From: Porphyridium purpureum
Taxonomy: Eukaryota
DNA: 20,812 nucleotides
Reading direction: 5' to 3'
NCBI GenBank assembly: GCA_008690995.1
Contig: VRMN01000017.1
Coordinates: 248,001-268,812, forward strand
This document shows positions 612 through 20,259 of the stretch, piece by piece. The notes beneath the pieces are model-generated. The model made no database searches. It saw only the letters and a list, made by a program, of their open reading frames with translations, and was not told the DNA's origin. Positions within the stretch are counted from its first letter, which is position 1; the number at the start of each line of letters is the position of its first letter. The translations under genes and the position numbers were made by a program.

Positions 612-3600
612 TTAACTTTCAAGCCGCTTGAGCACTTCGGCACGGTCCGCGTCTGGTAAACCGCCTAGCAGCTCCGAGATTGATGCACGCACGGCGTCCA
701 GTCGCACCGGCGCAAGCAGCGCATCCAGGTTGGCACTGTTTTCGTCAAACCACTTCAGGAACGCGCGGTCATCGAGCCACACGGCATCGCCGCCCACAAG
801 TGCGCGCATGACTTCTGTGGCGGCGAGCCAGTCGAGTGCTGCGTTGACTTTCGCGACGTGCTTGCGCAGCTCTAGTTCACGCAGACGGCGCTTTGTGCGC
901 CAGAAAAAGTACTCGCGGGAGCGCTTCCACTCGACAACGTCACGAATGACGCCCTTGGCCAGCATGCGACCCGAACGGTCGTGCAGATCGGCAAACTCGT
1001 GAGCAATCTGGAGATAGATTGGCAGCAACAGATTTTCGCGCTTGCTGATAGCAGCCTTGATTTCTGCGCGATCCTTTTCTTCCGTAGCATTCTCAAGCCG
1101 CGCGTCAAGCGAAAGCAGCTCAGTGTCCAGGCGATGCATCGCCTTCAGCTGATCGGGCGCACGAAACTTGACCTCGCAGATGCCCGGCGGCTCCAAAATA
1201 CCGCCCCGGCTCTGCGTGTCCGCGTACATCTCCATCATCTTTTCATTAATGGTCGGGTCAACGACCACCCATGCACCGCCGCGAAGCTCCGCATTGGGTG
1301 GCAGATAGATCGAGACAGGCATATCATACTTGCGCAGCGCGTCCACAATCATGGCACCGAACTTGAGCACTTCACCAAACATGTCGCGCGTGCCGCCCGA
1401 GAAACCACGCCAGTTCGCAAAAATCATCAGCGGCAAATTCTCACCGCTGAAGTCTTCGATCGCCTGTGCCGTCTTGAAAGCAGAGTCTGGGTACCATACT
1501 TGCCCGGCTTGAGGTTCAAGCGTCTCACGCGATGCCGCATTTGCTGGATCGGCCGGGATCACGCGATCAAAAGTGCGCGTTTCGACAGCAATCACTCCGT
1601 ACGGAATCCCGCCAAGCCTGGCGCGGCCTACTACTACACTCCTACCCCAGCCAGCTAGGTATTCTTTGAAGCTGCCGGCGTCAAAGAAGCCACGCAACAC
1701 CTTGCCATCCGGCTGCACACTTCCACGCAACATATCACGCACATCATACGTGGCCCCACCGCCTTTGGGCGGTACAAACTCGACATCGCGGCCGATTGGA
1801 TCTGCAGGCGGTCCCGCAAGTATAGGCGGACTGCCGCGTGCTGTCGCCGGCACGTACGCGAGCCAGTCCAAGATCGCAATGACACCTTCCTGGTCGTTCT
1901 CGACGAGTTCGTGCGTCACGCCATTAGGCACCATGATTTGGGGCCCTCCAAGCTGATCCAGTGAAGAGTATACGTCACGCCCTAGAAGCTTGTTCAGCGC
2001 CTGGAAGCCAGTGAGAATGATCGGTCCATTCGTTTGCTGGATGGTGCGCTGGCCCAGTCTCACCAAATAAGCGCCGATGCCAACCGAACGCCCCGTCACG
2101 TAGCTCAGCGTGAAACTTTCGTCGTACGCACGACTAGTCTCTCCAGCGATGAGACCGGAACCCCTCAGGTTCTCGACGCCGATGCCATGTGCAGTGCCAA
2201 TGATATCTTTGAGAACGTAACGCACTTCCTCCCCCTTTTCCCCAGAACCCGCGCATATGCGCCTTTCCGCGATGACTGTACCTTCAGGCAACTCATTGTA
2301 GTCCTTCTCTGACAAATACAAGTACTCGAAGCCAAGTGTTGGGTTCGACTCGTCGCGAAACTGCACTTTGAACATCGGTTTCAGCGACTCGACGAGGCCA
2401 ATACGTGCACCGCTGTTGCTCGACAGATAAATGCGCGGAATGCTACGCACACGGGCATACTCGGACGCTTTGAAAAAGAACTCGTCCTCAGCGACGCCAA
2501 ACGATCCGGCCTGGAATGTTACATCATTGGCAATAACCACGATCTCGCGACCAGATGGATATTCTGGTGTCTTGAGCGTGATGAGCCATGCGACCATACC
2601 AATCTCGTTCTGGCCCGGTGCGCGCTCCACAGGAGACAGCTCCTGCGTTTCTTTATCCAGCACAAGTTCGCGCGTCCTCATGAGCGATCCGAATTGTGGT
2701 GTGACGGGCGGGTTAGTCGAGCGCGTGCGAGCTCGCGACCACTGCTTCACGAGTGCAATTTCAAACAAGGCCATGAAATCGTAAGCGTACGTCGATCCGA
2801 CGCGACGTGCCGCGCGGCGCTTGAGCTGCTCCGGTCCACTCTTCGTGTAATACGGCCGCGACGCTGAAGCATTCAGCTGCTGTCCTTGTGCTATTTGCTG
2901 CTCCTCGTACGGCACATACTGCTCTGTTACGCCAGTGATCGGGTTCTGAATCTCTGCAAAAGCATCGGTCTTAAAGAACGTCCGCTGTGATTGCGCACCC
3001 GCGTAACCGCCTGTCGGCGACGCCCAAAGACGCACTGCCTGCTGGACTTCATTTCCAGTGCTGTCCGCTTCGAATGGCACGCGTATCTTGAGCTCGATGT
3101 TTTCCACACGCAGTCGGATCAGCCGTTCTGCGTACTTGACCATTAACGCTTCCATATCTGCTCGAAGGTGTCGAACCGTGTGCGCCGGAGGCAACTTTTT
3201 CGTGGGTCCGCCGGTCTGTTCAATGTACGCCGCCCCTTGGACAGGCTGCAATACGTTCAAAAACATGTTACAGGTGGCGGTGGGGTCTACACGCGGGTTC
3301 ACGATGCCAGCGTCGAGCTGGTCCATGAGGATGAGCAGCACTTTTTCCATCACGCCAGGTACAGACATATCTGAGTGCGAAATACCTCGCAGAAAGAGGG
3401 ACTGCGTGCGAGGCCGTGTGAGTGCCACTTCTTGGTCGCGCTTCTCGGTGCCTAGCCAAAGTTGAGCGTTTCGCAAGTAAATGGGTAGTCGTTGCAGTTC
3501 AAAGTTCTCACTCAGCCGGCTGAGCTCAAGCAAATAGGGGAAGGACGTGCGCATGTCACGTCGCAAGGCGTCTTCTGCATAGTTTTCGCAGTAGTTGAAC

Positions 3601-6600
3601 GAGAACATGCGCGGTGCTTTTGGCGCCTGGTTCACCAGCAAATTGACCGTGCGAACGCCGGCCTCGTTGCGAAGCTGGAGGTTACGCGCCTGCAACAAAC
3701 CCTCCCAACGCGAAATGAAGCCGCGCTCCTCTTCTGAGCCCTGAGGTAACGCACCAACCGGCCCGTTAAAGCTGATGATTAGCGTACCGATCGGCTCCTG
3801 CTCCTCCTCCTTCTTTTCCTTCGTCCACTCTGCCGCAAAGTCATCAATGATCGAAGGGAGCTTGTCTTGTGCGGTCGCCATCGAATCGCACGCCACCAGT
3901 CGCCCAAGCCGCATGGGCGAGCCCCGTACAATGTCTGCGTACGAAAACCGCCACGTTGCCACAATGCCGGAATCTGTGCGCTCGATGTTCAAAGCGTGGA
4001 TAACATGCGCACGGTAAACGCGGCGAATGTACACTTCAAGTGCAGCGCGGGCGACTTGCGCGTCCATGTCCAGGAAGAGTGAGCAAAGGAGGTCGACCGA
4101 CACACTCAGCGCACGCGACTTGGCAATCTCATCGAGTGCCGTAGAGTCGTTTCCCTTTGACATGATAAACTGGCGCACGTCTGCTAACCGCGAGTTGAAG
4201 TCTGGCGTGCGCAGTGCAGTCAGCAGCTGACCCGCTGCAACTACCACATCTCCATAGTTCTGGCTCTTCAGCTTCGTAAGAGCGGTCAAAGCGGCGTCGA
4301 GCTCCGGAGACAAAAGTGTGTCGTTCGGAAAGCGGTCCGGAAGCGTTCCTAGCTGGCGCAGAAGCGAGAGAACAAGCTCCGCGCGCCGCGGCAGTGTCAG
4401 GTGCGCTGCGATCATTTGGATTGCTGCCGCGTCGCTACCGGCGCTCTTCTTGATTGCCAAAATCGAATCATTGAGCGCGCGTCCGTCAAAATGTTCTTCG
4501 ACGCGAACAAATTCTTCGATGAGCGGCACGAGCCGAGAGATAATGTCGCATGCCGTGACTGGGTCTTCGATCGACTCTTCTGCTGAGCCAGCGTTTGAGT
4601 CCACCAACTGCTGCAACGCCGGGCCAACGCTTCCTTGGAAACCGTCTAGGATCAGCCGGAGCTTGTACGCCGCGATATCCACCGCATAGGTGCCAGCGCC
4701 TGTGCCCGCCGCGCCCATGCCAAGAGCAAGGACGTCACGGCCTTCGGGTTTGCGAATGTTAAGGACACCATCAAAGTCAGACACAGGCGACGCCTTGGAT
4801 GGGTCGTCGAGATCAAGCCGCGCAAGCAGGTCACCTGTCTTGATGATGGAGCCGGCGGCAAGCTCGTGGCGCAGCATGCCGGTCTCGCCTGCTGAGAGCT
4901 GCATAATCATCTTCATGGCCTCGAGCTCCACGTAAGGCTCGCCCTTCTTCACCGCATCACCATCCTGTTTGAGAAAGCGCACCACCTTGCCCGTTACGTC
5001 GCTGCGCAATTCAGATGGGTCAAAGATCGTCGGAATCATTACGGTGCTCCCATTGATAATCATGCGCAATCCGAGGGGCTCCTCTACGCCAGAAACTGAA
5101 TACACATTCTCACCCATGGTGCACAGTAGGCTCTGGTCCGGCTGCTCACGCACTTTGACGTCTAGCGACCACGTGCTCATCGAGCTTCCAGCTTTTGCCG
5201 CGGCCCCACTTGCAGAGCTTCCACTCGCGCTATCAAGCAAATTCAGGCGGAGCACGTCTGGCGCCAATCGGCCCACCTCAAAAGTGAAGCGGAGGCCCAT
5301 GTAGGTGATTTCGACGCTAAACTTGTTCAGAGCGTTCAACTCGGACACGAACGTGCTCTGACCACGCGCAAGCTGCTCAAGGCATGCGAGTTTGCCGCGT
5401 TTGATGGTGTCATGGGCGCGATACACAGCTGCAGCAAGAACGGCAGTGTCGCGATCCAGCTCAAATTTGACCGACTTTTCGCGGATCAGACGATCAAGCC
5501 ATGAGGTATCGATAGTATTCTGCTTGAATTCATCAGTCTCAAGCAGTTGCACCAAGTATTCGACCGGATTGCGAATCTCGCCGCGCGCTTCAAGCTCCTT
5601 GAGTGCCAGCACCAATGCCTTGCGCGCATCCTCACGGTTTGCGCCGCTGGCAAAAACATGCCCAAACTGCGAATCGGCAAACTCGTGAATCCCACCCTGC
5701 GCACCGACTGAAAAGTAGCCCCAGACGTCCGGACTGCTCTGAAATCGCACGCGCTCCACACGACCGCTCGTTGGCTTGAATCCTTCGTCCGGGTTTTCGG
5801 CGGTGATGCGAGCTGCGATGACGTGGCTGCGAAGCGGCTGGTACATTTCGGTCATAAAGTCGATCGGCGAGTCGCCGTATGCATCTGTGCCATCACGTCC
5901 GTACAGTCGTCGGATATCGGGCACGCGCGATAGTGCAATGCCCATCGCTACCTGCAGCTGCGTGGCGGGCATGTTCACGCGTGTGAGGCCCTCCGTCACT
6001 GGATGCTCGACCTGAAGCCGCGGGTTGAGCTCGAGGAAGAAAAACTTTTGCGTGTCCGCATTGTACAGGTACTCCACGGTTCCGGCTCCGCGGTAGCCGA
6101 TCGATTGCGTTAAGCGCTGCGCTGCGCGCTCCATTTCCCGGAAGACCGAAGGCTCCACGATAACGGGCGGTCCCTCTTCGAATATTTTTTGAAAGCGGCG
6201 CTGCGTGGAGCAGTCGCGCCCGTTCAGCGCTACCGCGTTGCCGTACTCATCTCCTACGATCTGGACCTCAATGTGTCTCGCGTTCTTGCACAACTGCATC
6301 ATGAAGATCGGACTCCCGGGTACTTCATTTACCACCTGTTCATAATTCGAGCGCAGCTCTGTTTCGTTCGCAGACATGCGAATGCCCTTGCCACCGCCGC
6401 CTTCGGACGCCTTTGTCATGATCGGGTAGCCGATGCGCTCGGCCACTGCGATCGCCTCGTCAACGTTGTGCACCATCGCTTGCTCAAATATCTCACGCGG
6501 GATCGTGCCGTCCTCTGACAGCTCTGCCGTCAGTCCATCGCCCGACCACGGGATGCTGGGCACGTTGGCCGTTTGTGCCAAAATGTTCGCGCCAATCTTG

Positions 6601-7163
6601 TCGCCCAGCACGGCCATGACGGGACCCGTCGGCCCGATGAACTGGATGCCCAGCTTGGCGAGTGAATTAGGCAATCGAGGGTTCTCAGATGCGTGGCCCC
6701 AGCCCGGCCACACTGCGTCGACGCCCTCGCGCTTCGCCATCGCACAGATCAACTCCACGTTGGCATAGTTGTTACGGTTTGGGCCGCCGGGTACCTCCAC
6801 AAAAGAATCTGCGAGGCGCACAAACTCGGCGTTGGCGTTGAGATCCTCTGGTGTGGCCATCGCAACAAATTCAATCGCTCGCTCCGAGCCTATTTCATAG
6901 TACGCCCACTTGCGCATGGACAGAATGGCCTTGGTGGCCGCCATGCCGTTGTTCGCGATCAGCACTTTCCGAATGACGCGCTTGCCGCCGCGAGCGTCCA
7001 CGTACTCCTGGAGCTGCTTCAGGTTTGTCTGATTCCGCGGCGACGCCGGCGGCGACGCTGATGCCGGTTTTTCCTCCACGCTAGCGCTCATGCGCAACAC
7101 CCCTGGCGCCGCGCCCCGCACGCCCGCCGGCTGATTGCCGCTGGTCCCTGCGCGCTTTCTCAT
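612..7163 (-). CDS. ACC1: Homomeric multidomain acetyl-CoA carboxylase (BC-BCCP-central-CT), plastid-type; true start probably further upstream (7306 or 7336-7342)
   Basis: Uninterrupted 2183-aa ORF. Biotin carboxylase motifs KVLIANNG, WPGWGHASENP, KASEGGGGKGIR, RDCSTQRRFQKIFEEGP and FLELNPRLQVEHPVTE; biotin attachment motif EAMKM (Lys codon 4911-4913); carboxyltransferase motifs ANDVTFQAGSFG, GVENLRGSGLIAGETS, AGQVWYPDSAFKTA and ANWRGFSGG. Confidence 0.97.
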   Translation of the reverse strand: MRKRAGTSGNQPAGVRGAAPGVLRMSASVEEKPASASPPASPRNQTNLKQLQEYVDARGGKRVIRKVLIANNGMAATKAILSMRKWAYYEIGSERAIEFVAMATPEDLNANAEFVRLADSFVEVPGGPNRNNYANVELICAMAKREGVDAVWPGWGHASENPRLPNSLAKLGIQFIGPTGPVMAVLGDKIGANILAQTANVPSIPWSGDGLTAELSEDGTIPREIFEQAMVHNVDEAIAVAERIGYPIMTKASEGGGGKGIRMSANETELRSNYEQVVNEVPGSPIFMMQLCKNARHIEVQIVGDEYGNAVALNGRDCSTQRRFQKIFEEGPPVIVEPSVFREMERAAQRLTQSIGYRGAGTVEYLYNADTQKFFFLELNPRLQVEHPVTEGLTRVNMPATQLQVAMGIALSRVPDIRRLYGRDGTDAYGDSPIDFMTEMYQPLRSHVIAARITAENPDEGFKPTSGRVERVRFQSSPDVWGYFSVGAQGGIHEFADSQFGHVFASGANREDARKALVLALKELEARGEIRNPVEYLVQLLETDEFKQNTIDTSWLDRLIREKSVKFELDRDTAVLAAAVYRAHDTIKRGKLACLEQLARGQSTFVSELNALNKFSVEITYMGLRFTFEVGRLAPDVLRLNLLDSASGSSASGAAAKAGSSMSTWSLDVKVREQPDQSLLCTMGENVYSVSGVEEPLGLRMIINGSTVMIPTIFDPSELRSDVTGKVVRFLKQDGDAVKKGEPYVELEAMKMIMQLSAGETGMLRHELAAGSIIKTGDLLARLDLDDPSKASPVSDFDGVLNIRKPEGRDVLALGMGAAGTGAGTYAVDIAAYKLRLILDGFQGSVGPALQQLVDSNAGSAEESIEDPVTACDIISRLVPLIEEFVRVEEHFDGRALNDSILAIKKSAGSDAAAIQMIAAHLTLPRRAELVLSLLRQLGTLPDRFPNDTLLSPELDAALTALTKLKSQNYGDVVVAAGQLLTALRTPDFNSRLADVRQFIMSKGNDSTALDEIAKSRALSVSVDLLCSLFLDMDAQVARAALEVYIRRVYRAHVIHALNIERTDSGIVATWRFSYADIVRGSPMRLGRLVACDSMATAQDKLPSIIDDFAAEWTKEKKEEEQEPIGTLIISFNGPVGALPQGSEEERGFISRWEGLLQARNLQLRNEAGVRTVNLLVNQAPKAPRMFSFNYCENYAEDALRRDMRTSFPYLLELSRLSENFELQRLPIYLRNAQLWLGTEKRDQEVALTRPRTQSLFLRGISHSDMSVPGVMEKVLLILMDQLDAGIVNPRVDPTATCNMFLNVLQPVQGAAYIEQTGGPTKKLPPAHTVRHLRADMEALMVKYAERLIRLRVENIELKIRVPFEADSTGNEVQQAVRLWASPTGGYAGAQSQRTFFKTDAFAEIQNPITGVTEQYVPYEEQQIAQGQQLNASASRPYYTKSGPEQLKRRAARRVGSTYAYDFMALFEIALVKQWSRARTRSTNPPVTPQFGSLMRTRELVLDKETQELSPVERAPGQNEIGMVAWLITLKTPEYPSGREIVVIANDVTFQAGSFGVAEDEFFFKASEYARVRSIPRIYLSSNSGARIGLVESLKPMFKVQFRDESNPTLGFEYLYLSEKDYNELPEGTVIAERRICAGSGEKGEEVRYVLKDIIGTAHGIGVENLRGSGLIAGETSRAYDESFTLSYVTGRSVGIGAYLVRLGQRTIQQTNGPIILTGFQALNKLLGRDVYSSLDQLGGPQIMVPNGVTHELVENDQEGVIAILDWLAYVPATARGSPPILAGPPADPIGRDVEFVPPKGGGATYDVRDMLRGSVQPDGKVLRGFFDAGSFKEYLAGWGRSVVVGRARLGGIPYGVIAVETRTFDRVIPADPANAASRETLEPQAGQVWYPDSAFKTAQAIEDFSGENLPLMIFANWRGFSGGTRDMFGEVLKFGAMIVDALRKYDMPVSIYLPPNAELRGGAWVVVDPTINEKMMEMYADTQSRGGILEPPGICEVKFRAPDQLKAMHRLDTELLSLDARLENATEEKDRAEIKAAISKRENLLLPIYLQIAHEFADLHDRSGRMLAKGVIRDVVEWKRSREYFFWRTKRRLRELELRKHVAKVNAALDWLAATEVMRALVGGDAVWLDDRAFLKWFDENSANLDALLAPVRLDAVRASISELLGGLPDADRAEVLKRLES

Positions 7164-7413
7164 CCGCCCGCTGGTCGGCGCGGTGAACGACGCGACCCGC
7201 TCCGCCGCCTTTCATCCATCGCGCGCGCTGCCTGGAGCGCGCCGCCGCCACGCAGCATATTGCCACAATACGCTTGCAAGGGCGGCTGGAACTGAAACGC
7301 CAGCATCGCCGCCGCACCACCCTCCCTCCTCCTCATCATCATCTTCTCTCCATCCCCCCCTGTCGGCGGCATCATGCACCGTGGCCCGCACCCCACCTCC
7401 CACCACACACGCT

Positions 7414-7460: not shown

Positions 7461-7672
7461 CCGTGCTCTCTTGCCCTCTCGTCCCCATCTCTCACCCCAC
7501 CCCCTTGCGTGAGACCCGCCTTATCACATCCACAAGCCGAAATCTCCATGTGTTCTGCTTTTGCGTTCTGTTTTCGCGTCGCGCCTCGAGCTCGATCAAG
7601 TACACTTGCATTCAAACTGAACCTTCACATGGCACTTTTATCGTGGAATATAGTCATCCCTCTCTGCCTGCC

Positions 7673-7936
7673 TGATGACGTGATGAGGAGTCATCAAATA
7701 CTTAATGATGACAACTCTCCGTTGGTTGGTGACCGTAATGGTTAACCACAGTAGTATATCATTCGAGTGTGAGAGACGGCCGACGAGTCGGCGCTCTGTC
7801 TCCTTTGGAGGTAAGAGCTAGGTTGTGTTAAGGAGTAAAGTCGTCTTGTTGTGGACCTCTTGCTTCAGCTAGCCACCAGTAGTTTACTATTGGTACACGT
7901 TTGGTATACGCGTGCTTCACGAAGACGCTATCATCA
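7673..7936 (+). repeat. Putative 5' LTR of element A (left end uncertain: TGATGA at 7673, 7681 or 7706)
   Basis: Ends ...TCATCA two bases before the PBS, and the inverted terminus TGATGA occurs at 7673, 7681 and 7706. The second LTR is not in the window, so the start cannot be fixed. Confidence 0.65.
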
Positions 7937-7938
7937 AA

Positions 7939-7954
7939 GGGTTATGAGCCCAGC
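7939..7954 (+). promoter_or_regulatory. Primer-binding site complementary to the anticodon stem-loop region of initiator tRNA-Met (half-tRNA priming)
   Basis: GGGTTATGAGCCCAGC. Its reverse complement GCTGGGCTCATAACCC is the eukaryotic tRNAiMet anticodon-arm sequence, the same PBS type as Drosophila copia and yeast Ty5. Confidence 0.9.
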
Positions 7955-8188: not shown

Positions 8189-11100
8189 ATGGAATATGAC
8201 ATGGATAGGGCTGCGGGTGCTAGTACCCCAGCAACACCGTCGCCGGCACGCGGTGGTGCAAACGCCTCGGCAACCCGCCTTGGCGCGGCAGCAAGTGCGC
8301 GGCGCGAGTCCGCGCGCGAGGAAACGAAACGAGAGATGGCGGCGATGCTGAATGCGGCATACGCCCAAATGCATCGCCAACTCTCGGAGGAATTCGGCGC
8401 CAAGATGGCGACCGAACTGAATACCCGGACGGCGATTGTTCAGAGTGAGCTCGCCGAGCTGCGGAGCGAGAACGTTCGTCTGAGGGCGCTTCGCGATGGA
8501 TCCGGTGGAAGTGGCGCTTTGCCGAGCTGCATGCGCCCTGCGGCCATGCTGTACTATGGCGGCGAGCGATCCACTGCGGCCATTATGACCTGGACGGCAG
8601 CAGCGCGTTCGCGGGTGTACAACCCGGCGCGCTCGGATTGGCGGTCGCAGGGCCGTCTTTGGACGGAAACCGAGGAAGAGGAAGCAGTGTCGACGCTTTC
8701 GACTCACCTCTTCGGATTGGCGCAACTCTGGTACCAGGCATTACAACCTGATCAGAGACCCACCTCGGTAGAAGAGTTTCTGCTCGCGCTTCAGCGGCGC
8801 TTCGAGCCCAAAGAAACAGAAAATGACGTGCGGGATGAACTGCAAAAGATGAAGAAGGGTGCAATGAGTGTCCAAGATTTTGAAGCTGCATTTAGTGAAG
8901 TTTGTCTGCGTATACCAAATTTGGTAGACAAAGATAAACTTCACTATTTTACAGAATCTCTTGACACTTCTATTGCCACTCACGTAGCGCTTCACTTCCC
9001 TCCCACCTATGACGACGCTTTGCGTTTGGCTTTAGTTGCCGACAAAGTCATATTTAAGCGTGGTCGAGACCAGCAGCCCATCACAGCACGCACGTACCCG
9101 TCAGCCATGCAGCCTGCATACCACCCCCAGATGAACTATAACCAGCATGGTCCGGTGCCAATGGACTTGGGTACCGCCAGCGGCAGCAGCGCACGGGTGC
9201 ACGGACGAGGATACAACGGCTTCCAGCGGGATCGCTCGAACGAGTATCAACAGCAACAGCATGACCAATGGTCACCAGCTGGACCGCAGCGGAACCTGCG
9301 TGCGAATCATGCAGAGCGGTACGCGCAGAGCCGCGCGGACGGACGAGACGGCGGCTGGCGAGAGCCGAGCACGCATGGTTGGAACCGTGGTGGCGGCCAG
9401 AACGACGCGCGTGGGCGCGGACAGAAGCGTGGCGCACCGCAACGAGGCGGTGCCAGTAGACCACGACCGCGACAGACGCCGAAGTCGCAACAAGATGGCA
9501 AGAAGAGTAATCAGCGTGGGCGCTATTACTGCCATCGGTGCTCCGTGTGGGGGCCAGCGACGCACAACTGTGCAGACAGGCGCGATGATCGCGATGCCAA
9601 TCTCGGCGGAGCCGAGTTGATGACCGCCAGTGCGGGCAAAGGGTTGCTCAAGGTGAATGCTTGGGTGAACGGCCGGGCGATGAAAGCAGTCATCGATACC
9701 GGCGCAACGCACACCTTTCTGAGCGAGAGCGCATGCGCGATGGTGCGAGTGCGCACAAATAGCACCGCGAATGCCTTGACCATTCGATTGGCAGACGGCA
9801 CGCAGTGCATGTCTCGCGGGCGCGCGACAGTGAATCTGGCGGTGCTGGATTCAGCAGAGAAGCAGCAGGACGTGGTTGTGTACAATGGCCACAATGACCT
9901 CGTGATCGGTCTCGATTGGCTTCGAACCAACCGCTTCGAAATGATCATCGGCGGTCACAGTCTTGGCACAGCCGAGGCTGAGCATGTAGAGCAGGACCAT
10001 TGCGTTCTGCACATGCCGTCGCGCGACACGTGCGGAATATGCAGCGCGGCAAAGCTGCGGCGCGCGCGTGCTGTGAGGCGAGACGACTCGGTTGGCAAAG
10101 AGCGCGGACGAGCGCGCGAGTTCAACGACGTGGTGTCGATTGACATTGTGGATCCCGGACTGGCAGCCGTGGATGGCAGCAGGTGGCTGCTCACTCACCT
10201 CGACGAAGCCACTGGGTGGTTCTCAGCAATTGGGCTGGCGGACAAGTCCGCCGCTGAGTGCATTCGCGGGTTGACGGAGCTGCAGCGCGGACGTGGTGAT
10301 TGGCCACGAGTGTTGCGGTGTGACGAGGGCCGCGAGTTCATGGGCGAATTCGACGGATTCATCGCGGAAAAGGGCGTGAAGAAAGTCACTGGTGTACCTT
10401 ACCGGGCGAACACGCACGCGACGCATGAACGCAAGCATGCAGACTTGAACGGAGCAGTGCGAGCACTGCTGATGCAGTCTGGCTTGCCGACCGCGTGGTA
10501 TCCGTTCGCCGCCGCCTACTTTTGCCTGGCCAGAAACCTCGCCTGGCGCGGCGCAAAGCAGGAGCAGACCAGCTTCGAGCAACGGCTCGGTCTAACATGG
10601 CACAAGCCCATCCCTGCATTCGGGAGCGGCATTCTCATATACGATGAGAGCCGCGGCAAATTTGAGCCGAAAGGCTTGCCTGCAATCGTCGTTGGGTTCA
10701 CGGCACCGAGGCCGAATGACCCGCGGCAGCCCATAAACCTGCTCGCCCTGCCCATTGCCGACTTGCGGCCATCTGCGATCAGGAAGGTCGGCGAATGGAA
10801 GCCACTTCCCGACAAGTGGCCATTGCGACGTTTGGCACTGCGGCCTCCGGATGAGGCCATTACGACGGGTGATCAATGGTCGCGAGCACGCGACAATGCA
10901 CCGGACCGTGCATTCTGCACACAGTGCAAGAAAATAGTCGGTGGGAGCACCGAATGCGAGAAATGCATTTTGGGTCCGGCGCCCAGCCGACGTCACACTG
11001 GTGACGGCGCATGCAGGCAAATGCACTGCCAGTGCTACCGAGACGAGCACGGAAAGCTCGCGTCACGAGCACAGTATCGGCGCATTGAGCTGCCGTGGAG

Positions 11101-13096
11101 TCCGGCCGAGGACATTGCCATATCCGAAGGCATTGCCCGTTTTGGTGAGGACTGGCTTGCCATCGCGGGTAGGCCAGCATTCTTCATGCGCGGCCGCAAA
11201 CCAGCCGGCTTACGCGCGCGCGCAGCGGAACTGGGTGTGCTTCCAGTGCACGCAGCAGCAGCGAGCGACGCGACGCGGAACGACGCGACGCGAGCAGAGA
11301 GTAGCAGCGACGCAATGTATACAAGCGCGGCGACAGGGGGACCAGAGGACGAAGCGGCAGGTCTGGGGGTGGCAGAAGTTGTGGCCACAGCGGTGGCGAT
11401 GGCCACGCCCGCCGGCCGCCATGCATTAGCATCCGAGCTTCGTGCGCTCACCAGCACCGGCGCTCTGCCTTTCCGCCGCACGATGGACAAGGCAGTGGCG
11501 GCGCGCGTTCCGAACGCGCAATTCGTTAAGTTGAAGCTCCTCTTCAACAAGAAGAATTCAGAAATGCCTTCGTCGTTCCACAAGACGAAGTGCCGCATCG
11601 TCGCGCAAGGATGCGTCGTGCTGGACGCCGATGGGCGTCGCGCGCGCGAAGAACCGTACCCTTTTGATCGCCCACCAGGTTTGCTGGCGATCCGCGCCTC
11701 GATGAGCATGGCGCTCATGCTCCATGGACCATCCGCCGACGGCGCCTTCTTCGACGTAACGTGTGCCTACCCCAGTGCACCATTGGGCGGCCGTCCGACA
11801 TTCGGATATCTGCGCGACCTGGTCCCGGTCGTGAAGGGTCTAGTCAGCGAAGCCGACTACAGAAAGATGGCCGCATGCAGCGAGCCTGTCGTGGAGCTAC
11901 CGCAGGCTCTGTACGGAATGAAAAGGAGCGGCAGCGACTTCAGCCACGACGCTCGCGAGCGTGTCCGGCGGCTTGGATGGCAAGAATCCAACGCGGACAA
12001 GAACCAGTACTGGCGCCGCGACGCGAACGGCAGCATGCTCACGCTGAGCATGTACGTCGACGATGGCGCACTCTTCGGCAATGCGGATGCGGTACGAGTG
12101 GCGGTCAAACAACTGAAGACCGTCTTCAGAATCGACCAGAAGGTCGAATACATTGCAGACTCGGCGCGTACGCGCCCTATCAAGTATCTCGGCATGCACA
12201 TCTATCGCGACGGCGGCCGATGGATACTGGATTCGGGGGTGTACGCCACCCATGTGGCGAACGGCCACACCGCGGACAACTTGCGCGTGCGCAGCACGCC
12301 ACTCAGCGAGCGGGTCGACGACAATGGACCCGGCGGGCGCGCGTGCCCGACAAACAAGCGAACAGTGATTGGCCAACTGCTGTGGCTCAGCCGAACCACG
12401 CGAGCAGACATCGCTTATGCCACGGCGCATGTGGCGCGTTATGTCGACCGGTGGGGGCCAAGCGCGGATCGCGCGCTCGACGAGATCGTCGGGTATCTGA
12501 AGAAGCATGCGGACGTCTGTCTGCAATACGACATACCCGCGACAGGAAGTCGCGACGTTCGGTTGCACGCGTGGGCTGATGCCGACTTCTCGGCACCGTC
12601 ATCCACGAGCGGCGCCGTGCTCTTCATATCGAATGGCAGATGCCGACACCTTGTAGACTGGACCAGTCGGCGCCAGCGGCGCGTCAGCACCTCGACGACC
12701 GAGGCTGAGTTGGTAGCGCTGCACGACGCAGCGCAAGGCAGCGTGTTCCCAGTGGCGACACTGGCGGAAGAACTTTTGAGGCGCTGGCCTCCGATCGTTG
12801 TGCGGTGCGACAACGAGTCGACTTTGCGCGCGGTGGAGCGCGGCCACAGTGACCGGCTACTGCATGCGCCAAAGATGCAGCGCATCTCTCTGAGATGGTT
12901 GCACGAGATAGCAGCGGACGGACTCGTCAAGTTCGTCTATGTCGCTACGCGCGACAACATCGCTGACGGCTTGACGAAGCCGATTGCCACCGACGTGTTT
13001 CGCGGCCATGCATGTTACCAATGCTGTGCCTTTATTCTCTCTCTCTTCTTCTTCTTTCTTACCTCTTCTGTCTCCGAGCAAGACCTGACCGGCTAG
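8189..13096 (+). CDS. Gag-Pol polyprotein of element A: Gag, Zn-knuckle-like motif, aspartic protease, integrase, Cys-rich module, Myb-like domain, RT, RNase H; last 27 aa are read-through into LTR B
   Basis: First ATG at 8189. Protease DTGATH (9695); integrase HCVLHMP..CGIC (9998) and D10142, D10322, E10427; copia-type RT KCRIVAQG, FDVTCAY, QALYGMKRSG, YVDD (12053), YLGM; copia-type RNase H WADADF, WTSRRQ..VSTSTTEAE, CDNES, NIADGLTKP. Confidence 0.92.
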   Translation: MEYDMDRAAGASTPATPSPARGGANASATRLGAAASARRESAREETKREMAAMLNAAYAQMHRQLSEEFGAKMATELNTRTAIVQSELAELRSENVRLRALRDGSGGSGALPSCMRPAAMLYYGGERSTAAIMTWTAAARSRVYNPARSDWRSQGRLWTETEEEEAVSTLSTHLFGLAQLWYQALQPDQRPTSVEEFLLALQRRFEPKETENDVRDELQKMKKGAMSVQDFEAAFSEVCLRIPNLVDKDKLHYFTESLDTSIATHVALHFPPTYDDALRLALVADKVIFKRGRDQQPITARTYPSAMQPAYHPQMNYNQHGPVPMDLGTASGSSARVHGRGYNGFQRDRSNEYQQQQHDQWSPAGPQRNLRANHAERYAQSRADGRDGGWREPSTHGWNRGGGQNDARGRGQKRGAPQRGGASRPRPRQTPKSQQDGKKSNQRGRYYCHRCSVWGPATHNCADRRDDRDANLGGAELMTASAGKGLLKVNAWVNGRAMKAVIDTGATHTFLSESACAMVRVRTNSTANALTIRLADGTQCMSRGRATVNLAVLDSAEKQQDVVVYNGHNDLVIGLDWLRTNRFEMIIGGHSLGTAEAEHVEQDHCVLHMPSRDTCGICSAAKLRRARAVRRDDSVGKERGRAREFNDVVSIDIVDPGLAAVDGSRWLLTHLDEATGWFSAIGLADKSAAECIRGLTELQRGRGDWPRVLRCDEGREFMGEFDGFIAEKGVKKVTGVPYRANTHATHERKHADLNGAVRALLMQSGLPTAWYPFAAAYFCLARNLAWRGAKQEQTSFEQRLGLTWHKPIPAFGSGILIYDESRGKFEPKGLPAIVVGFTAPRPNDPRQPINLLALPIADLRPSAIRKVGEWKPLPDKWPLRRLALRPPDEAITTGDQWSRARDNAPDRAFCTQCKKIVGGSTECEKCILGPAPSRRHTGDGACRQMHCQCYRDEHGKLASRAQYRRIELPWSPAEDIAISEGIARFGEDWLAIAGRPAFFMRGRKPAGLRARAAELGVLPVHAAAASDATRNDATRAESSSDAMYTSAATGGPEDEAAGLGVAEVVATAVAMATPAGRHALASELRALTSTGALPFRRTMDKAVAARVPNAQFVKLKLLFNKKNSEMPSSFHKTKCRIVAQGCVVLDADGRRAREEPYPFDRPPGLLAIRASMSMALMLHGPSADGAFFDVTCAYPSAPLGGRPTFGYLRDLVPVVKGLVSEADYRKMAACSEPVVELPQALYGMKRSGSDFSHDARERVRRLGWQESNADKNQYWRRDANGSMLTLSMYVDDGALFGNADAVRVAVKQLKTVFRIDQKVEYIADSARTRPIKYLGMHIYRDGGRWILDSGVYATHVANGHTADNLRVRSTPLSERVDDNGPGGRACPTNKRTVIGQLLWLSRTTRADIAYATAHVARYVDRWGPSADRALDEIVGYLKKHADVCLQYDIPATGSRDVRLHAWADADFSAPSSTSGAVLFISNGRCRHLVDWTSRRQRRVSTSTTEAELVALHDAAQGSVFPVATLAEELLRRWPPIVVRCDNESTLRAVERGHSDRLLHAPKMQRISLRWLHEIAADGLVKFVYVATRDNIADGLTKPIATDVFRGHACYQCCAFILSLFFFFLTSSVSEQDLTG

Positions 13097-13316
13097 CCCG
13101 GGCAGGCGCGTCGCCTTTTTATACCCTTACTTCCGCCAGGGACAGCAAGGCGCCACGAGAAATGACAATGCAAATCATTGGCATTTCTGCGCGCGTCTAG
13201 AAGGTTCTGGAACCTCTAGAAGCTTCTAGAAACGGTTAAACGGTCTACCGGTTTAGCGGCTTACCGGTTTCGGACTAACCGAACCGTTCTAGGTGACTGG
13301 GGTCGAACGGATAACA
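13013..13316 (-). repeat. 3' LTR of element B (304 bp)
   Basis: Termini TGTTACC... and ...GGATAACA, directly adjacent PPT, minus-strand TATAAAA at 13117-13123, and the same layout as the LTRs of element C. Partner LTR not in the window. Confidence 0.82.
13199..13232. promoter_or_regulatory. Two perfect tripartite heat-shock elements (nGAAnnTTCnnGAAn) in U3 of LTR B
   Basis: aGAAggTTCtgGAAc at 13199-13213 and aGAAgcTTCtaGAAa at 13218-13232, about 75-110 bp upstream of the LTR TATA box. Confidence 0.75.
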
Positions 13317-14182: not shown

Positions 14183-14323
14183 TAATTCTAGAATTAGCGT
14201 TGCCCCATTCTTGAGTAATTTCTTGTGGGAGCGCGCGGGCCGGTCTGGTTGGTGGTCGGGTGGCCCGGAACCAGGGCGACGTGGGGGAGAGGTGCCAGGT
14301 CGGGTGGCTCTGGTGTCTCGTTT

Positions 14324-14615
14324 TGTCACAAACGGAGCTTCTTTTCTTTACTTCTTCTTCTCTCCTCCTCTACCTCCTCTCTTCTTTCTAGCCTTTTTTC
14401 TTCGTTCGGCTGCCGCTCGCTCTGTTTTATACCCGCCTTCCGGCGCCGCAACGGCTTGCCCGGCGGGTTCAGCCCTCGGAATAACCCAATCCCGCGGCCC
14501 TCAACATAACTCAGCTGTACCACACGGTACACCCACAGCTGTACTTTCAGTACACTTAGGGACTGTACCTCTGCGTACTCGCTGTACTGAGACCTGCATC
14601 AGGTCGCTCGCGACA
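14324..14615 (-). repeat. 3' LTR of element C (292 bp)
   Basis: TGTC...GACA; direct repeat of 20260-20551 with a single difference (T14387 vs C20323). Confidence 0.97.
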
Positions 14616-14630
14616 TCCCACACTTCCCGC
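14616..14630 (-). other. Polypurine tract of element C (imperfect)
   Basis: Minus strand GCGGGAAGTGTGGGA directly precedes the 3' LTR. Confidence 0.7.
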
Positions 14631-15136
14631 TTATCCACAGCGACCATTGCGATAGCGTGTTCTAAGCCCACGCGCCGCATGCATAGCAGCCGTTCCCGTG
14701 CCGCTCAACAGGTTCAAGCACAATGAGCTGAGATCGAGCGGACGAAGTACAGTGTAAGCTGACAGGGTACAGTGCCAGCAACAGGGCCAAAAAAATAAGG
14801 TGGCCGGTGCCGCTCACAAGTGACGCCCACTGACAAGACCCCGTACAGGCTGCCATCCCCCTCCCCCGCTAACCTTAAAGGAAAGGTGCGCTGTTACGGC
14901 TCTGCCCAATGTCACCCCGGGGAATTACCCTAGCCACGGATCCCCAGCATTTCACAGGGGCAGTTTTCTCTAATCAGGGAGTGTCTAAGATCCTCTTCAA
15001 TTCTCGTTTGCCAAACTGCCGAAATTTAGAGTATATACACCCCCAAATATGGACTCAGGTACAGTATTACTGTACTTCACTGTACACAGACTGTACTTCA
15101 TTTTGTTCTTTATCATTCGTTCTACCGTCTTGCTGC

Positions 15137-15277
15137 GGGCACGGCTCCTTCTTTACCGTCCAGCCATGGACACAGCTCCTTCTTTAATGTCCAGCAACGG
15201 ACACAGCTCCTTCTTTATCGTCCAGCAACGGACCCAGCTCCTTCTTTACCGTCCAGCCACGGACACTCCATCTTTAT
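15137..15277. repeat. 31-bp tandem repeat, about 4.5 copies, in the 3' UTR of element C
   Basis: Units start at 15137, 15168, 15199, 15230 and 15261 (partial); approximate consensus GGACACAGCTCCTTCTTTACCGTCCAGCMAC. Confidence 0.92.
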
Positions 15278-15325
15278 TCGAACATTTTTTTTTTGAGAGC
15301 AGCGACGGCCGATAGCCACCCAGCG

Positions 15326-18300
15326 TCAAACACCTTCTGCCATGTCTCGGTACGCGGCTACCAGCATGGGCGGGAGCGTCTTCTCAGCCTCCCATGTGTC
15401 GCCTCGCTTCCCCATACCCCGCCATCTCACCTTGTACTCGCGGCCTCCACCCGCAGCCCGATCTTCCACAATTGCCTCCACCACCCAACTTGCATCTCCT
15501 CCAACGAACACGTTCGTGCCGGCCATGTCTACCACGTCCGGGTCTGCCTTGTGCAAGCGGTTCACATGCACGAGCTGGCCATGGAGCTCTGCGTCATCTC
15601 GGCCGTTTGCGCTGACCACGACTGCGTGAACCCCGTTCCGCTTTGTGATGCGGAAAGGTCCGAGCCACGGCTTTGTCAGCTTGCGACCCTGCCTCGTACT
15701 TGGGCACCACACGTATACGATGTCGCCTTCGGCAAACGTTTCCTTGTTCCGATGAATGTTTCTGTCATAGTACCTTGCAAACCTCTCGGCGTTCTCCGAC
15801 ATCTTATTCCCGGCGAGCCGATAGGCGCGCGCCAGCTGTGCGGAGATATCTTGCGGTTGCTGGCCCCCTTCAACCGCTCGCGGTCCGGCCATGCTTGCCC
15901 AGTCCTTGGCTGGCGACCCAAACATCATTTCGTACGGCGAGAAGCCGGTGGCTGCGTGGCGCGACGTGTTGTACGCGTAGGTTACAACGGACAGCCACCT
16001 ATCCCAGTCGCGCGAGCTTGCACTGACGTACGCCGACAGCATCTTGCACAGGGTCGCATTGAAGCGCTCCACCCTTCCGTTCGTCTGCGGGTGGTAGGCT
16101 GTCGTCATGAGCCTCCGGATTCCGAGTCTGGCGCAAAGCGACGTGATCACCTCACCGACAAAGTTTGAGCCCCGGTCGGACAAGATGGACTCCGGCGGGC
16201 CAAAGACAGTCAACCACGTCTGCAGGAAACTCCGCGCCACGGTCTCTGCCTTCTCGTCCGGGAGCGCCACGGCAACCGCCCATCGCGTCCAAGCATCCAT
16301 CATGACGAGCACCTTGATATTTCCCGTTCGCGTCTCCGGACTGATGGTGAGGATGTCCATGCCTACAATTTCAAAGCGTCTGGACGCCGAGTACTGCACC
16401 ATCGCCGCGTTCCGGCGGGGTGGTGGTGCCTTGCGCGCTATGCACTCGTGGCAGCACCGAACGAACTTCCGAACGTCTTCTGTCCACCCGGGCCACCACC
16501 ACTGCGCGTCGGCTATCCTCGCCGCCGTCCTCGCCGTCCCCATGTGAGCCGACAGCGGGGCTCCGTGATAGACATTCAGAACTGCCGACACAAGGGCGTC
16601 AGGGACCACCCGCCTGGGCATGTCTTTCAGCAACGCAAACACAATCCCGTCTTCGTCCACGATATACTCAGGGAAGGAGTACTTTGACGCGGGGCCTGAT
16701 AGGTTCTTGAGCTCAGCGCAGATCTGCTCGTCCTCTGCGTACGCTGCTCTGAGCTCGTCGTCCGTGGGCACAGCGTATAGCGCCCCACTGTCTTGCGTGT
16801 CCCGTACCTCCCGGACCTCTTCTTCCGTGCCAGTGTCCAGAGGAGTACGCGATAGCGCATCGGCCACGATATTCGCTGCGCCTGGCTTGTGCTTCACGTC
16901 AAACTCGAAATCTTGCACGCGCATGATCCACCTTGCCGTCCGACCCCGTGGCTCTTTCTGGCGAAGCAGCCACAGCAGCGCCGAGTGATCCGTCACGAGA
17001 ATGAACTTCTTGCCGAACAGATAGTGCCTGAACTTTTCCATGGATAGTATGGCACCCAAGCACTCTTGCTCCGTGACGCTGTAGTTCAGCTCTGCGCCTC
17101 GGAATGCCCTTGAGTAAAAGGCCACCGGGCGCCGCTGGTCCCCTTGAAGCAAGACCGCGCCAATGCCCACCTGGCTCGCGTCGACTTCAAGAACCATCTC
17201 GGCGGCCGGATTGAATGCAACCAGGACTGCGCTACCGTCGTCCATCGGATCACCTAGCGCATGGCGTAGGTCTATGAACGCGGCGCGCTGGTCGTCCCCG
17301 AATCTGCTCGCCCACTCTGCGCCACCAGCCGTCTTCCGGTGGAAGCCACCTTTCTTGTCCGTCAATCCGAGCCCAGTCAGCGCCCGCCTCAGCGGGAGGG
17401 CGCGCTCCTCGAAGTTCGGTATGAAGTTACGAAACCAGCCGACCAGTCCCAGGAACCGCTGCAGGTCCTTCGCTTCTTCTGGCTCTGGCCACTCCAGGAT
17501 TGCCCGCGTCTTATCTACCCCAGGCCGCAAACCTTGCGGGCCAATGCGATGGCCCAGAAACTGTACTTCTGCCAGAGCAATCTTGCACTTGCGGGCCGAC
17601 AGTGTAAGCCCCGACGCCGCGAACCTTCGCAAGATCTGACGAAGTCCTTCCACATGTTCCTCGAAGGTCTCATGTCCCACTGTCAGATCGTCAATGTAGA
17701 TCTGCGCGTGTGCATGGCGCATAGGGCCCAAAATCCGGTTGTTGAGTCGCTGGAAAGTTGGCGGACTATTGCAGCAGCCCTGCGGCAGACGCGTGTATTC
17801 AAATAGCCCCTCACGTGTGATCATGGCAGTCAAATGCATGCTTTCTGGCGCAAGGGGCACCTGGAAAAACCCGTCCTTGAGATCGAGAGCGCTCTTCCAT
17901 CGGCGCCTCGAAAGCCAGTCGAGCATCTCCCCAACGTCTGGGATTGGGTACCTGTCCTTGATTGTGATTGCATTGAGCGGGCGAAAGTCGGTAGTCATCC
18001 GATACGATCCATCTGGTTTCCGGATCAGTACGTTGGCTGCTGCACACTCCGACGTGCTCGGCTGCAGCACTCCCTTAGCGACAAGGGCTTCGACCAGGCT
18101 GCGCTCGGCCTCGTTCTCGGCCTCTGAGCGCCTGCGCACTTTGGCCACCAGAGGGCGCTGGCCCGGTTCGACAGTGATGGTGTGTTCCACCAGGTCCGTC
18201 AATCCCATGGACGGCCTGAACAGCACCCACGCCTCAGCTAGGACGTCGCCGACTCGTTTGCGCTGCTCGGGCTCGAGATGCCCAAGCTCGATGGCCGCGG

Positions 18301-18934
18301 CGTTGCGCAGGGCTTCCTCTTTCTCGGCCGCGTGCTTCTGCTCCAGCTGGGCGATTCGACGATCAATCTCGCCCGGTTCTTCAAGATGACCGATGTGTTC
18401 TGGGCCCGGCAGACCACTCACTTGCTCGAACGGTAGAGAACCTCCACGCTTGAAGAACACAGCTTGACCTGGCAGCACGGCCGCGACTTCTCGAACCTGG
18501 AAGTCCCAGCCGATCAAGAGATCTGTCTTGAGGTGTTCCGCCACTCGGACCGTCTCGCACGGAAAAACGAAAGACCCGAGATGCAGATCCAGAAACCCAA
18601 CGCTGACTCTGCCCAAGGAGGCGCCGTCCGGCCCTCGCGCTCCCCAACTTGACGGCTGCGTTTTCAAGCCGAGCCGGTCAGCCACGCTCGGGCTCACCCA
18701 TGTTGAGTTTGCGCCCGTGTCCAGAACTGCCAGTGCAACCACTGCCTGGCCACATGCGGTGAGCTTCACCCGCAACGTCGGACTGTTGTCCGCACGCACG
18801 GCTAGCTCCGAGTCGCCGTCTTGTTCCTTGGCGTACGCCGCGCCTTGCAACTCTGCCTCACCTGAGGCATCGCCCGGCTCCCACCATTCCATGCAGGGGG
18901 CAGCTACTGCTTGCTGCCCCACTGCCCGTTTTTT
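15326..18934 (-). CDS. pol: Pol of element C (protease, RT, RNase H, integrase, chromodomain), expressed by -1 frameshift from gag
   Basis: Part of ORF 15326-19078. Motifs LDTGAN; DFRPLN, LDLKDGFFQ, PQG, YIDD, FLGH; DASQVGIGAVL, TDH, ADALSR; H..H..C..C, SDRGSNF, HPQTNGRVER, WLGPF; chromodomain WVVEAIVEDR...EYKVRWRG...DTWEAEKTL (about 15350-15487). Confidence 0.95.
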   Translation of the reverse strand, partial: KKRAVGQQAVAAPCMEWWEPGDASGEAELQGAAYAKEQDGDSELAVRADNSPTLRVKLTACGQAVVALAVLDTGANSTWVSPSVADRLGLKTQPSSWGARGPDGASLGRVSVGFLDLHLGSFVFPCETVRVAEHLKTDLLIGWDFQVREVAAVLPGQAVFFKRGGSLPFEQVSGLPGPEHIGHLEEPGEIDRRIAQLEQKHAAEKEEALRNAAAIELGHLEPEQRKRVGDVLAEAWVLFRPSMGLTDLVEHTITVEPGQRPLVAKVRRRSEAENEAERSLVEALVAKGVLQPSTSECAAANVLIRKPDGSYRMTTDFRPLNAITIKDRYPIPDVGEMLDWLSRRRWKSALDLKDGFFQVPLAPESMHLTAMITREGLFEYTRLPQGCCNSPPTFQRLNNRILGPMRHAHAQIYIDDLTVGHETFEEHVEGLRQILRRFAASGLTLSARKCKIALAEVQFLGHRIGPQGLRPGVDKTRAILEWPEPEEAKDLQRFLGLVGWFRNFIPNFEERALPLRRALTGLGLTDKKGGFHRKTAGGAEWASRFGDDQRAAFIDLRHALGDPMDDGSAVLVAFNPAAEMVLEVDASQVGIGAVLLQGDQRRPVAFYSRAFRGAELNYSVTEQECLGAILSMEKFRHYLFGKKFILVTDHSALLWLLRQKEPRGRTARWIMRVQDFEFDVKHKPGAANIVADALSRTPLDTGTEEEVREVRDTQDSGALYAVPTDDELRAAYAEDEQICAELKNLSGPASKYSFPEYIVDEDGIVFALLKDMPRRVVPDALVSAVLNVYHGAPLSAHMGTARTAARIADAQWWWPGWTEDVRKFVRCCHECIARKAPPPRRNAAMVQYSASRRFEIVGMDILTISPETRTGNIKVLVMMDAWTRWAVAVALPDEKAETVARSFLQTWLTVFGPPESILSDRGSNFVGEVITSLCARLGIRRLMTTAYHPQTNGRVERFNATLCKMLSAYVSASSRDWDRWLSVVTYAYNTSRHAATGFSPYEMMFGSPAKDWASMAGPRAVEGGQQPQDISAQLARAYRLAGNKMSENAERFARYYDRNIHRNKETFAEGDIVYVWCPSTRQGRKLTKPWLGPFRITKRNGVHAVVVSANGRDDAELHGQLVHVNRLHKADPDVVDMAGTNVFVGGDASWVVEAIVEDRAAGGGREYKVRWRGMGKRGDTWEAEKTLPPMLVAAYRDMAEGV
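18897..18934 (-). promoter_or_regulatory. Programmed -1 ribosomal frameshift signal
   Basis: Slippery heptamer A AAA AAC (18934-18928) in the gag frame, a 7-nt spacer, then an 8-bp stem GGGGCAGC/GCTGCCCC. Pol lies in the -1 frame. Confidence 0.85.
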
Positions 18935-20202
18935 GGTCCGTGGCTCAAGCCACCGTCCGAATACGGCGCGCGTGGTGCTCCACCTTGGCCCGCGGGGCGA
19001 TGCACTCCCCCATCGGCCCTTGGCCATCCATTGCGGCAATCCCTCTTCAAGTGTCCAAGTTCGCCGCACTGCCAGCACTGCGGCTGTCCGGGCAGAGCAG
19101 TCGGAAGGGCTTGGCGCTTGGCCTGTGGCCCAAAGCTCTCAACCTGGTATACATCCTCTGCGTACAGGCCGTAGTCACGACCGCGCTTCTGGATCGTCGT
19201 GCCCGGGACCTCGCCTATGCGGCCCACTCTCTCGCGGCCAAGCGGGCGTTGCTGGCCAAACGGAGGAAGCGAGCGACTCGGTAGACCCTTCAAACCATCT
19301 TCACCGACGTGGTCTACCAGAGCTGAGCGCAGCTTGGTGAACGAGACGCTCACGCCGATCATGCGGACCGTGTTCTTCAAGAACGCGGAGTCCATGGCTT
19401 CGATCAACACGTCCTTCTTGTCCTCGTCGTCCATCTTGAGCCCGTCAGCCTTGGTCTCCAGGTCGTTCAGAAAGACACTCAAGCTGGCTTTCCCCGGTTG
19501 GAACTTCATGCGGCGGAGCTCGGCTTTCAAAGCCTGGCGGTGCTCGACATTGAAAAACATGGACTCCAGTGCCTTCCACACACGGTTCGCTGCGCCGGGC
19601 CCTGCCGCATCGACATCTTTGATCACGGCTTGGTACCTTGACACCGCGGGCCCACCAAAGCAAGCGCTGATGTGCTCCGCGACATTGTCCCTTGCGAGGC
19701 CAAGTGTGTCCGCGTGCGACTCCCAGCAGGTCCGCGACGCGAAGAAATGAGCGTCACCTGGGGCCTTGATAAGAACTTGAGCACTGCGGACCGCCTCGCG
19801 AAAGGTTGCTGCGAGCTTCAACTGCTCCTCCCAGAACGACCGATCCGTGGTACGGCCCGAGGTCTGCGCCGAGTTGCGGCTGTGCGCCTGGGCCTCCAGT
19901 TCAGCAACGCGAGCGCGAAGGGCCATCACTTCGGCTCCGCCCGGTGCAGCTAGGTCTCCAACCGGGACAACGGACTCTGCGTCGGCTGCGGCTTCCAGGT
20001 GACCTGGCGTCCCCTGCTCATTGTCGACAGCTTCACCCTGGTGCTCCACGACAGGCCCGTCTTCTGGCGCTGGGCCCCCGGCACGAGCGGCCCCTGCTTC
20101 GATGATCGCGGATCCGCTGCGTGGCTCCCCAAGTCCTGCCACAACTGCTGCCTCGCGAGGCCCACCTGCCTCTCCAACTCCTGCCCCACGCCCACGCGCC
20201 AT
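18904..20202 (-). CDS. gag: Gag of element C
   Basis: First ATG at 20202, 58 nt from the 5' LTR. Coiled coil LRARVAELEAQ, capsid-like helical region, and canonical Zn knuckle CWQCGELGHLKRDC. Confidence 0.92.
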   Translation of the reverse strand: MARGRGAGVGEAGGPREAAVVAGLGEPRSGSAIIEAGAARAGGPAPEDGPVVEHQGEAVDNEQGTPGHLEAAADAESVVPVGDLAAPGGAEVMALRARVAELEAQAHSRNSAQTSGRTTDRSFWEEQLKLAATFREAVRSAQVLIKAPGDAHFFASRTCWESHADTLGLARDNVAEHISACFGGPAVSRYQAVIKDVDAAGPGAANRVWKALESMFFNVEHRQALKAELRRMKFQPGKASLSVFLNDLETKADGLKMDDEDKKDVLIEAMDSAFLKNTVRMIGVSVSFTKLRSALVDHVGEDGLKGLPSRSLPPFGQQRPLGRERVGRIGEVPGTTIQKRGRDYGLYAEDVYQVESFGPQAKRQALPTALPGQPQCWQCGELGHLKRDCRNGWPRADGGVHRPAGQGGAPRAPYSDGGLSHGPKNGQWGSKQ

Positions 20203-20259
20203 CCTATCCCACTCCCAACCCCACACTTCCTCGCTCCCACACGACCAATTTGCAAATTA

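Follow-up and report, generated by a model that had tools for sequence, protein, structure and literature searches.

A conserved Myb-type domain between integrase and reverse transcriptase in a copia-order LTR retrotransposon of Porphyridium purpureum

A segment between the integrase core and the reverse transcriptase (RT) of a copia-order LTR retrotransposon of Porphyridium purpureum, here called element A, is confirmed as a conserved Myb-type domain. The peptide to which an earlier note on this DNA had drawn attention is in frame, with positions 11078-11233 encoding amino acids 963-1014 of a long plus-strand open reading frame (ORF), and it follows the rve core (aa 645-738) and precedes RVT_2 (aa 1230-1362). 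Placing a Myb-type domain on the C-terminal side of the integrase, as that note did, is borne out by profiles of related families and by the predicted fold. The domain may have a role in steering integration. The fuller reading, to which we would give about an even chance, is that a telobox-type Myb was captured, probably remains on the mature integrase and biases insertion by a sequence-relaxed grip on DNA.

The window, meaning the whole analysed stretch of 20,812 nucleotides, contains a putative acetyl-CoA carboxylase ORF and then nested retrotransposons (Table 1). In element A, a single ORF from position 8189 follows the copia order, with gag, protease, integrase, RT and RNase H. Its putative primer-binding site presumably resembles the half-tRNA-iMet site of Ty5 and copia, and its RNase H motifs are taken to be of the copia type. 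The nested Ty3-type LTR cuts the element 3' of the last RNase H motif, and the divergence of protein P0002 from the ORF after aa 1607 matches this insertion. The 3' LTR of element A lies outside the window.

Table 1. Positions of element A, its domains and the neighbouring features in the window
Feature	Position	Strand	Basis or remark
Putative acetyl-CoA carboxylase ORF	612-7211	-	Named from its own sequence
5' LTR of element A, 298 bp, termini CG...AG	7642-7939	+	Loose ends of contigs and reads, joining contig
Putative primer-binding site, GGTTATGAGCCCAGC	7940-7954	+	Directly 3' of the LTR
gag-pol ORF of element A	8189-13012	+	Broken at 13012/13013 by nested Ty3-type LTR
Ty3/gypsy-type capsid (gag)	8672-9037	+	PF19259 39.9 bits, PF03732 43.4 bits, both above cut-off
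Ty3/gypsy-type aspartic protease, DTG at 9695	9644-9940	+	PF13975 42.1 bits, PF13650 35.1 bits
Integrase: HHCC zinc motif, DDE core (D651, D711, E746), C-terminal part	9998-10831	+	rve 33.4 bits
Cys-rich module C-x2-C-x9-C-x2-C-x9-H-x5-C-x4-C-x-C, predicted zinc-binding	10916-11035	+	Ligands kept in 4/8 families
Myb-type three-helix domain (predicted fold), telobox/TRF kinship, altered recognition helix	11078-11239	+	Profile, fold, alignment
Hydrophobic motif G-L-G-V / A-E-V-V, putative IN/RT cleavage site	11360-11383	+	9/9 aligned proteins
Copia-type RT, YVDD at 12053	11372-12331	+	RVT_2 27 bits, E 4e-6, below cut-off
RNase H, motifs intact up to the nested insertion	12542-13012	+	Motif positions
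LTR of nested Ty3-type element	13013-13316	-	RNA depth up to about 3300
Complete chromodomain-bearing Ty3/gypsy element	14321-20551	-	99% identical repeats of at least 295 bp

Relatives were collected with the RT-RNase H of element A as the sole query, which gave 99 clusters and may miss more distant ones. Eight of these clusters form a distinct clade (45-100% identity; six from P. purpureum and two Logan proteins), in which the related families are 45-55% identical to element A in RT/RNase H. Judged by its domain matches, this clade is a Ty3/gypsy-type gag and protease joined to a copia integrase, RT and RNase H. Gypsy-type gag and protease families are matched in element A and in four full-length P. 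purpureum proteins of the clade, and none is listed among the precomputed domains of the 91 matches outside it. These other relatives are copia-type polyproteins, nearly all with RVT_2. The sister family from the same genome (P0028/P0125) has a regular copia gag, protease and SH3 domain and no Myb; the gag-protease part of the clade shows no similarity to that of P0125 (best E 0.89). No match to the copia domain Pol_BBD was found in element A, and with it the Retrotran_gag_2/Pol_BBD signature is missing. Copia membership is seen in the PR-INT-RT-RH order within one ORF, in the copia relatives and in the RT, which is of the RVT_2 type and has no RVT_1 match. A swap of gag and protease in the ancestry of the clade is a plausible source of this combination, which points to exchange between two LTR superfamilies. 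Mixed traits are known from other elements: PyRE10G of Porphyra is said to be a copia element with a gypsy-like integrase. Gmr1 is a Ty3/gypsy element with copia-like order (PMC2774666, in part). Unlike both, element A is of gypsy type in gag and protease and of copia type in integrase, RT and RNase H, and a Gmr1-like gypsy identity was rejected because of its RVT_2-type RT.

Conservation among related elements, named beforehand as a test of the idea, is found in that the Myb domain occurs at the same place in six of the eight clade families. It is absent from the 91 other copia matches and was not detected in the families P0024 and P0025. The alignment is gap-free over 64 columns in five families, with 12 invariant columns, and a sixth family has an insertion of four residues. 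Outside these six families, the best score of the five-family profile among 125 proteins is -0.1 bit. The isolated segment of element A reaches 21.8-22 bits with Pfam PF00249 (E about 2e-4; cut-off 24.4), over helices 1-2 only, while the same model matches 5/5 family representatives in the alignment (best E 5e-7) and gives 24.3 bits with the whole P0026 protein, next to the curated cut-off of 24.4. A profile of four other families, built without that of element A, recovers the segment in the whole polyprotein (19.5 bits, E 3.6e-8), gives a weak 4 bits on family 2 and has no match in P0024, P0025 or the sister family.

With no sequences other than those of the elements as input, AlphaFold2 predicts for the domain the three-helix Myb fold that the earlier note expected (pLDDT 75.5), with helices at domain positions 13-26, 29-34 and 46-56, corresponding to aa 971-984, 987-992 and 1004-1014 of element A. 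The structural neighbours of the model are Myb, SANT and HTH folds, among them TRF1, GcrA, c-Myb, Timeless and Tbf1 at Z 5.3-6.1. TRF1 is the top neighbour (Z 6.1, rmsd 2.1, 50 residues aligned), at a modest Z and tied with GcrA and the Timeless HTH. Foldseek returned nothing at E<=0.001, and its best rows are nevertheless Myb folds; in the ESM Atlas the Myb by itself had only leads below 0.9 (Timeless HTH 0.84, Myb 0.81), and the stretch comprising the Cys-rich module and the Myb had no match. Prediction of that longer stretch from two sequences gave an unusable model (pLDDT 42.5). The modest, tied Z and the fact that Pfam and PDB sequence matches fall mainly on helices 1-2 count against reading the domain as a DNA grip.

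The likeness to TRF/telobox proteins claimed in the earlier note holds because of the cellular and structural matches. A telobox-like motif in helix 3 is found in 39 of the 40 best cellular domains, against 16 of 104 others, in a search of more than a billion representatives; TRF1 is the best PDB match of one of the top cellular domains (E 3e-11), and TBF1 is the best single-domain match of the element profile in PDB (30.2 bits). Two named top cellular matches are fungal, and capture from a fungus is not claimed on this. The third Trp and the telobox, which the earlier note described as diverged, are indeed lost in the alignment. Element A has two Trp in the domain, and the third aromatic position is Ala or Leu in 9/9 element proteins. 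When residues are mapped onto TRF1 through P0159, the equivalents of D422 and W424 are found in none of the nine and that of R425 in one, while D422 and R425 are kept in 9/9 cellular comparators. The full telobox recognition helix (K421, D422, W424, R425) is thus not found in the element domains, of which eight have Arg at the K421 equivalent. TRF1, TRF2 and Tbf1 share with the element Myb helices 1-2, a long linker between helices 2 and 3, the K421 equivalent and the predicted fold; apart from the lost residues, the element domain differs from them in its Leu-Gly tail and in being part of a retrotransposon polyprotein.

The pI is at least 9.4 in 8/9 element domains, with a whole-domain net charge of +3 in element A. 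In histone-binding SANT domains an acidic surface replaces the basic DNA-binding face. The basic whole-domain charge of these eight domains is the opposite and appears to fit DNA binding better than such a role, so that the histone-binding module also considered in the earlier note, if taken as an acidic SANT domain, is weakened. Points against a DNA grip are the neutral domain of P0022 (pI 6.1), Glu or Gln at the R380 equivalent in families 1 and 2, and the replacement of the Arg before helix 3 in P0022/P0023.

How such a domain could act may be outlined as follows. The Myb was likely captured from a host protein of the TRF/telobox type. A motif like V/(A/T)E(V/I) precedes RT in 9/9 aligned proteins, 45 aa downstream of the domain, and this hydrophobic motif is a candidate for the cleavage site between integrase and RT; if the protease cuts there, the Myb would be left at the integrase tail. 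Contact with DNA would still be made through the basic N-terminal arm and the Arg kept in place of K421. In simulations of TRF1 D422A, target and off-target DNA are bound about equally, and D422 is termed a 'negative selector' (PMC5737604, in part). Lacking the D422 equivalent, the element domain would similarly bind non-telomeric DNA about as well. Several Myb copies per intasome could then tether the complex to accessible DNA, like the chromodomains of Ty3 and CoDi-A, and the upstream Cys-rich module may act as a second, exchangeable tether.

All eight putative ligands of the Cys-rich module are kept in families 1 and 2, P0024 and P0025, and the module is absent from P0022, P0023, P0026 and P0027. 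Taken with the distribution of the Myb, this gives two families with both modules, four with the Myb only and two with the Cys-rich module only. Such a series makes the proposal testable by comparing insertion sites in existing genomes. The module has no significant match in Pfam or PDB; the sole PDB row, a piggyBac Cys-rich domain at E 8, was rejected as a sign of kinship. A PHD finger was rejected as well: the ligand order is C4-H-C3, yet no PHD match was found at E<=10, and the spacing differs from what we take to be the PHD pattern. Both families without a detected Myb carry the module.

The integrase C-terminus is used for targeting in several known elements. In Ty1 and Ty5, which like element A belong to the copia superfamily and have a C-terminal integrase module, the module is a targeting peptide that binds the host proteins AC40 and Sir4, respectively (PMC7459421, in part). 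These are short peptides, while the module of element A is a folded domain of about 55 aa by prediction. Closer in this respect are the diatom Ty1/copia element CoDi-A, which shares the copia order, and the Ty3/gypsy chromoviruses, both with a folded host-type domain at the integrase C-terminus that has been proposed to guide integration (Llorens et al. 2009, PMC2774666, in part). The domain at this position in Ty3 and CoDi-A is a chromodomain (PMC8632968, PMC2774666, both in part), as in chromoviruses, and in element A it is a Myb/HTH domain. A Myb-like domain tied to target-site choice is found in the non-LTR elements R2 and R4/Dong, in R2 together with zinc fingers; it is N-terminal there, in elements with target-primed insertion, and in element A it is attached to a DDE integrase (PMC7998251, in part).

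Such precedents also raise the question of whether the Myb fold docks on host chromatin or on a transcription factor, in the manner of the Ty1/Ty5 targeting domains, instead of on DNA. Known LTR targeting runs through host proteins (PMC7459421, PMC8632968, both in part), and SANT and other Myb folds that do not read DNA are among the fold neighbours. Ala, Ser and Gly are frequent in the recognition helix of the element Myb, from which the base-reading residues have gone, and a hydrophobic tail, L-G-L/V-L, is kept after helix 3 in most families. Against this stand the basic charge, the kept Arg and the nearest kin, which are DNA-binding telobox proteins, and docking on a host protein is therefore considered unlikely, though worth keeping in view. 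Equally tentative is the idea that the Myb reads target DNA directly, its recognition helix having been adapted from family to family to suit other sequences or DNA structures. If so, this would be LTR retrotransposon targeting by the element's own sequence read-out and not by a host tether, built on a chimera of gypsy gag and copia pol with exchangeable Myb and zinc modules. More generally, a folded, putatively DNA-binding domain on the integrase would be an alternative to the host-protein tethers of the LTR systems that have been worked out.

The LTR borders of element A are marked by loose ends of contigs and reads, which cluster at 7642 and 7939/7940, and one contig links the 3' interior of the element to 7642. 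The termini depart from the TG...CA of Ty1/copia, and TG does not precede the CG in 4/4 left flanks; in other copies a purine-rich tract and then TG stand before the 3' LTR. Such non-canonical ends would suit a Myb that binds the element's own cDNA ends and helps intasome assembly on them. The sequence TCATCA/TGATGA occurs five times in the LTR, a count matched by 4 of 2000 shuffles, and the Tf1 chromodomain promotes cDNA binding according to the title of a reference. The repeats are asymmetric, however, since four of them lie close to the left end and a single one at the right, and they may be a site for a host transcription factor. A role at the cDNA ends is accordingly regarded as rather improbable.

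A relic of an old gene capture, functionless in the linker between integrase and RT, would agree with the weak Pfam scores, with the lost third Trp and telobox, and with the two of eight families without a detected Myb, in which the domain may be dispensable; the same absence weighs against a DNA grip. The pattern of conservation makes this very unlikely. The Myb is conserved about twice as well as the adjoining linkers: over ten pairs from five families, mean pairwise identity is 40.6% in the Myb and 17.5% and 23.5% in the flanking linkers, compared with 44% in the C-terminal integrase part at the usual SH3 position (for which Pfam gives no match) and 49.6% in RT. Family 2 was excluded from this count because it is misaligned in that alignment; between it and element A the Myb is 48% identical and the flanks 7-29%. 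The gap-free alignment with its invariant columns argues in the same direction, as does 11212 A>G, the sole variant listed in the Myb region for two other DNA runs, which is synonymous. Within the family of element A, 12 of the 15 listed members carry the segment almost unchanged, and the other three are shorter proteins without the searched motif.

The trees are compatible both with loss of the Myb in P0024/P0025 and with branching of these families before its gain (p-AU 0.36); the 50-row tree was made by a quick method and carries a long-branch warning. In P0025, a stretch at the Myb position is by eye faintly like helices 1 and 3, is missed by the profile and is possibly a decayed copy. One clade polyprotein, P0124, is annotated with a cyclin-domain fusion, which is probably an artefact of the gene model. 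When 1.84 billion representatives were searched with the profile, the top-scoring single domains came from four further pol fragments of P. purpureum, and no element from another organism was found among the 148 new proteins of the best 150. A metagenome scan gave 68 pattern matches and no relative, and word-based searches with the integrase region or a profile of the Cys-rich module and Myb found families 1 and 2 and one distant plant copia only.

Past 7641, one low-depth contig and three RNA reads of a separate run share a sequence other than that of element A, a sign that the insertion site 7641/7642 is empty in other strains. With 16 near-identical proteins and a site that is empty in other runs, the family of element A is young, so its insertions should still show any bias. 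A recent LTR expansion (8% of the genome) is described for P. purpureum (PMC6811547, in part), in a paper that uses neither the word copia nor the word telomere. Seven flanks of about 30 nt were compared, namely that of element A, three more on the left and three on the right. A telomere-like or short tandem repeat was found in 0/7, and no shared motif was apparent by eye, the latter a point against a DNA grip. The distance between element A and the first in-frame ATG of the putative carboxylase ORF is 479 bp, with the element on the upstream side, and the insertion could affect the expression of that gene. The clade proteins are spread over many scaffolds; six are on a 5.7-Mb scaffold with accessions from KAA8497529 to KAA8499353, a spread that suggests interior sites if accession order follows position. 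Guidance to telomeric repeats or chromosome ends, as in the TRF relatives, has telobox kinship in its favour, and a changed specificity is possible because two probes for telomere repeats gave no specific signal in P. purpureum (PMC3622300, in part), but with the D422 and R425 equivalents lost, the flanks non-telomeric, a copy next to the putative carboxylase ORF and the clade on many scaffolds it is most improbable. The integrase-tail Myb module of the earlier note is supported by predicted fold, telobox kinship, conservation and a position on the integrase side of the putative cleavage motif; binding of telomere repeats has become less likely.

No Myb domain in an LTR integrase was found in the literature searched by full text, of which coverage is partial, so that an earlier mention is possible; Myb was not found in the main text of PMC2774666, PMC3248453, PMC6338049 and PMC5890265. 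The integrase tail is a known slot for captured domains; what appears to be new is a telobox-derived Myb there, on a gypsy/copia chimera.

RNA reads in the Myb bin are thin on both strands, at a depth of 2-7 in each direction, and need not stem from this copy. The LTR of the nested Ty3-type element lies far above this, at about 1800-3300 in one run. In the complete Ty3/gypsy element of the window, gag and pol are in different frames, and a 31-bp tandem array occupies 15127-15281. The ENA protein P0039, of copia order, has a CCCH finger in its gag and, at aa 1169-1217, a chromodomain that lies between SH3 and RT, and the Cymbomonas copia polyproteins P0038, P0041 and P0094 list a Dam adenine-methyltransferase domain, which in P0038 is upstream of the integrase.
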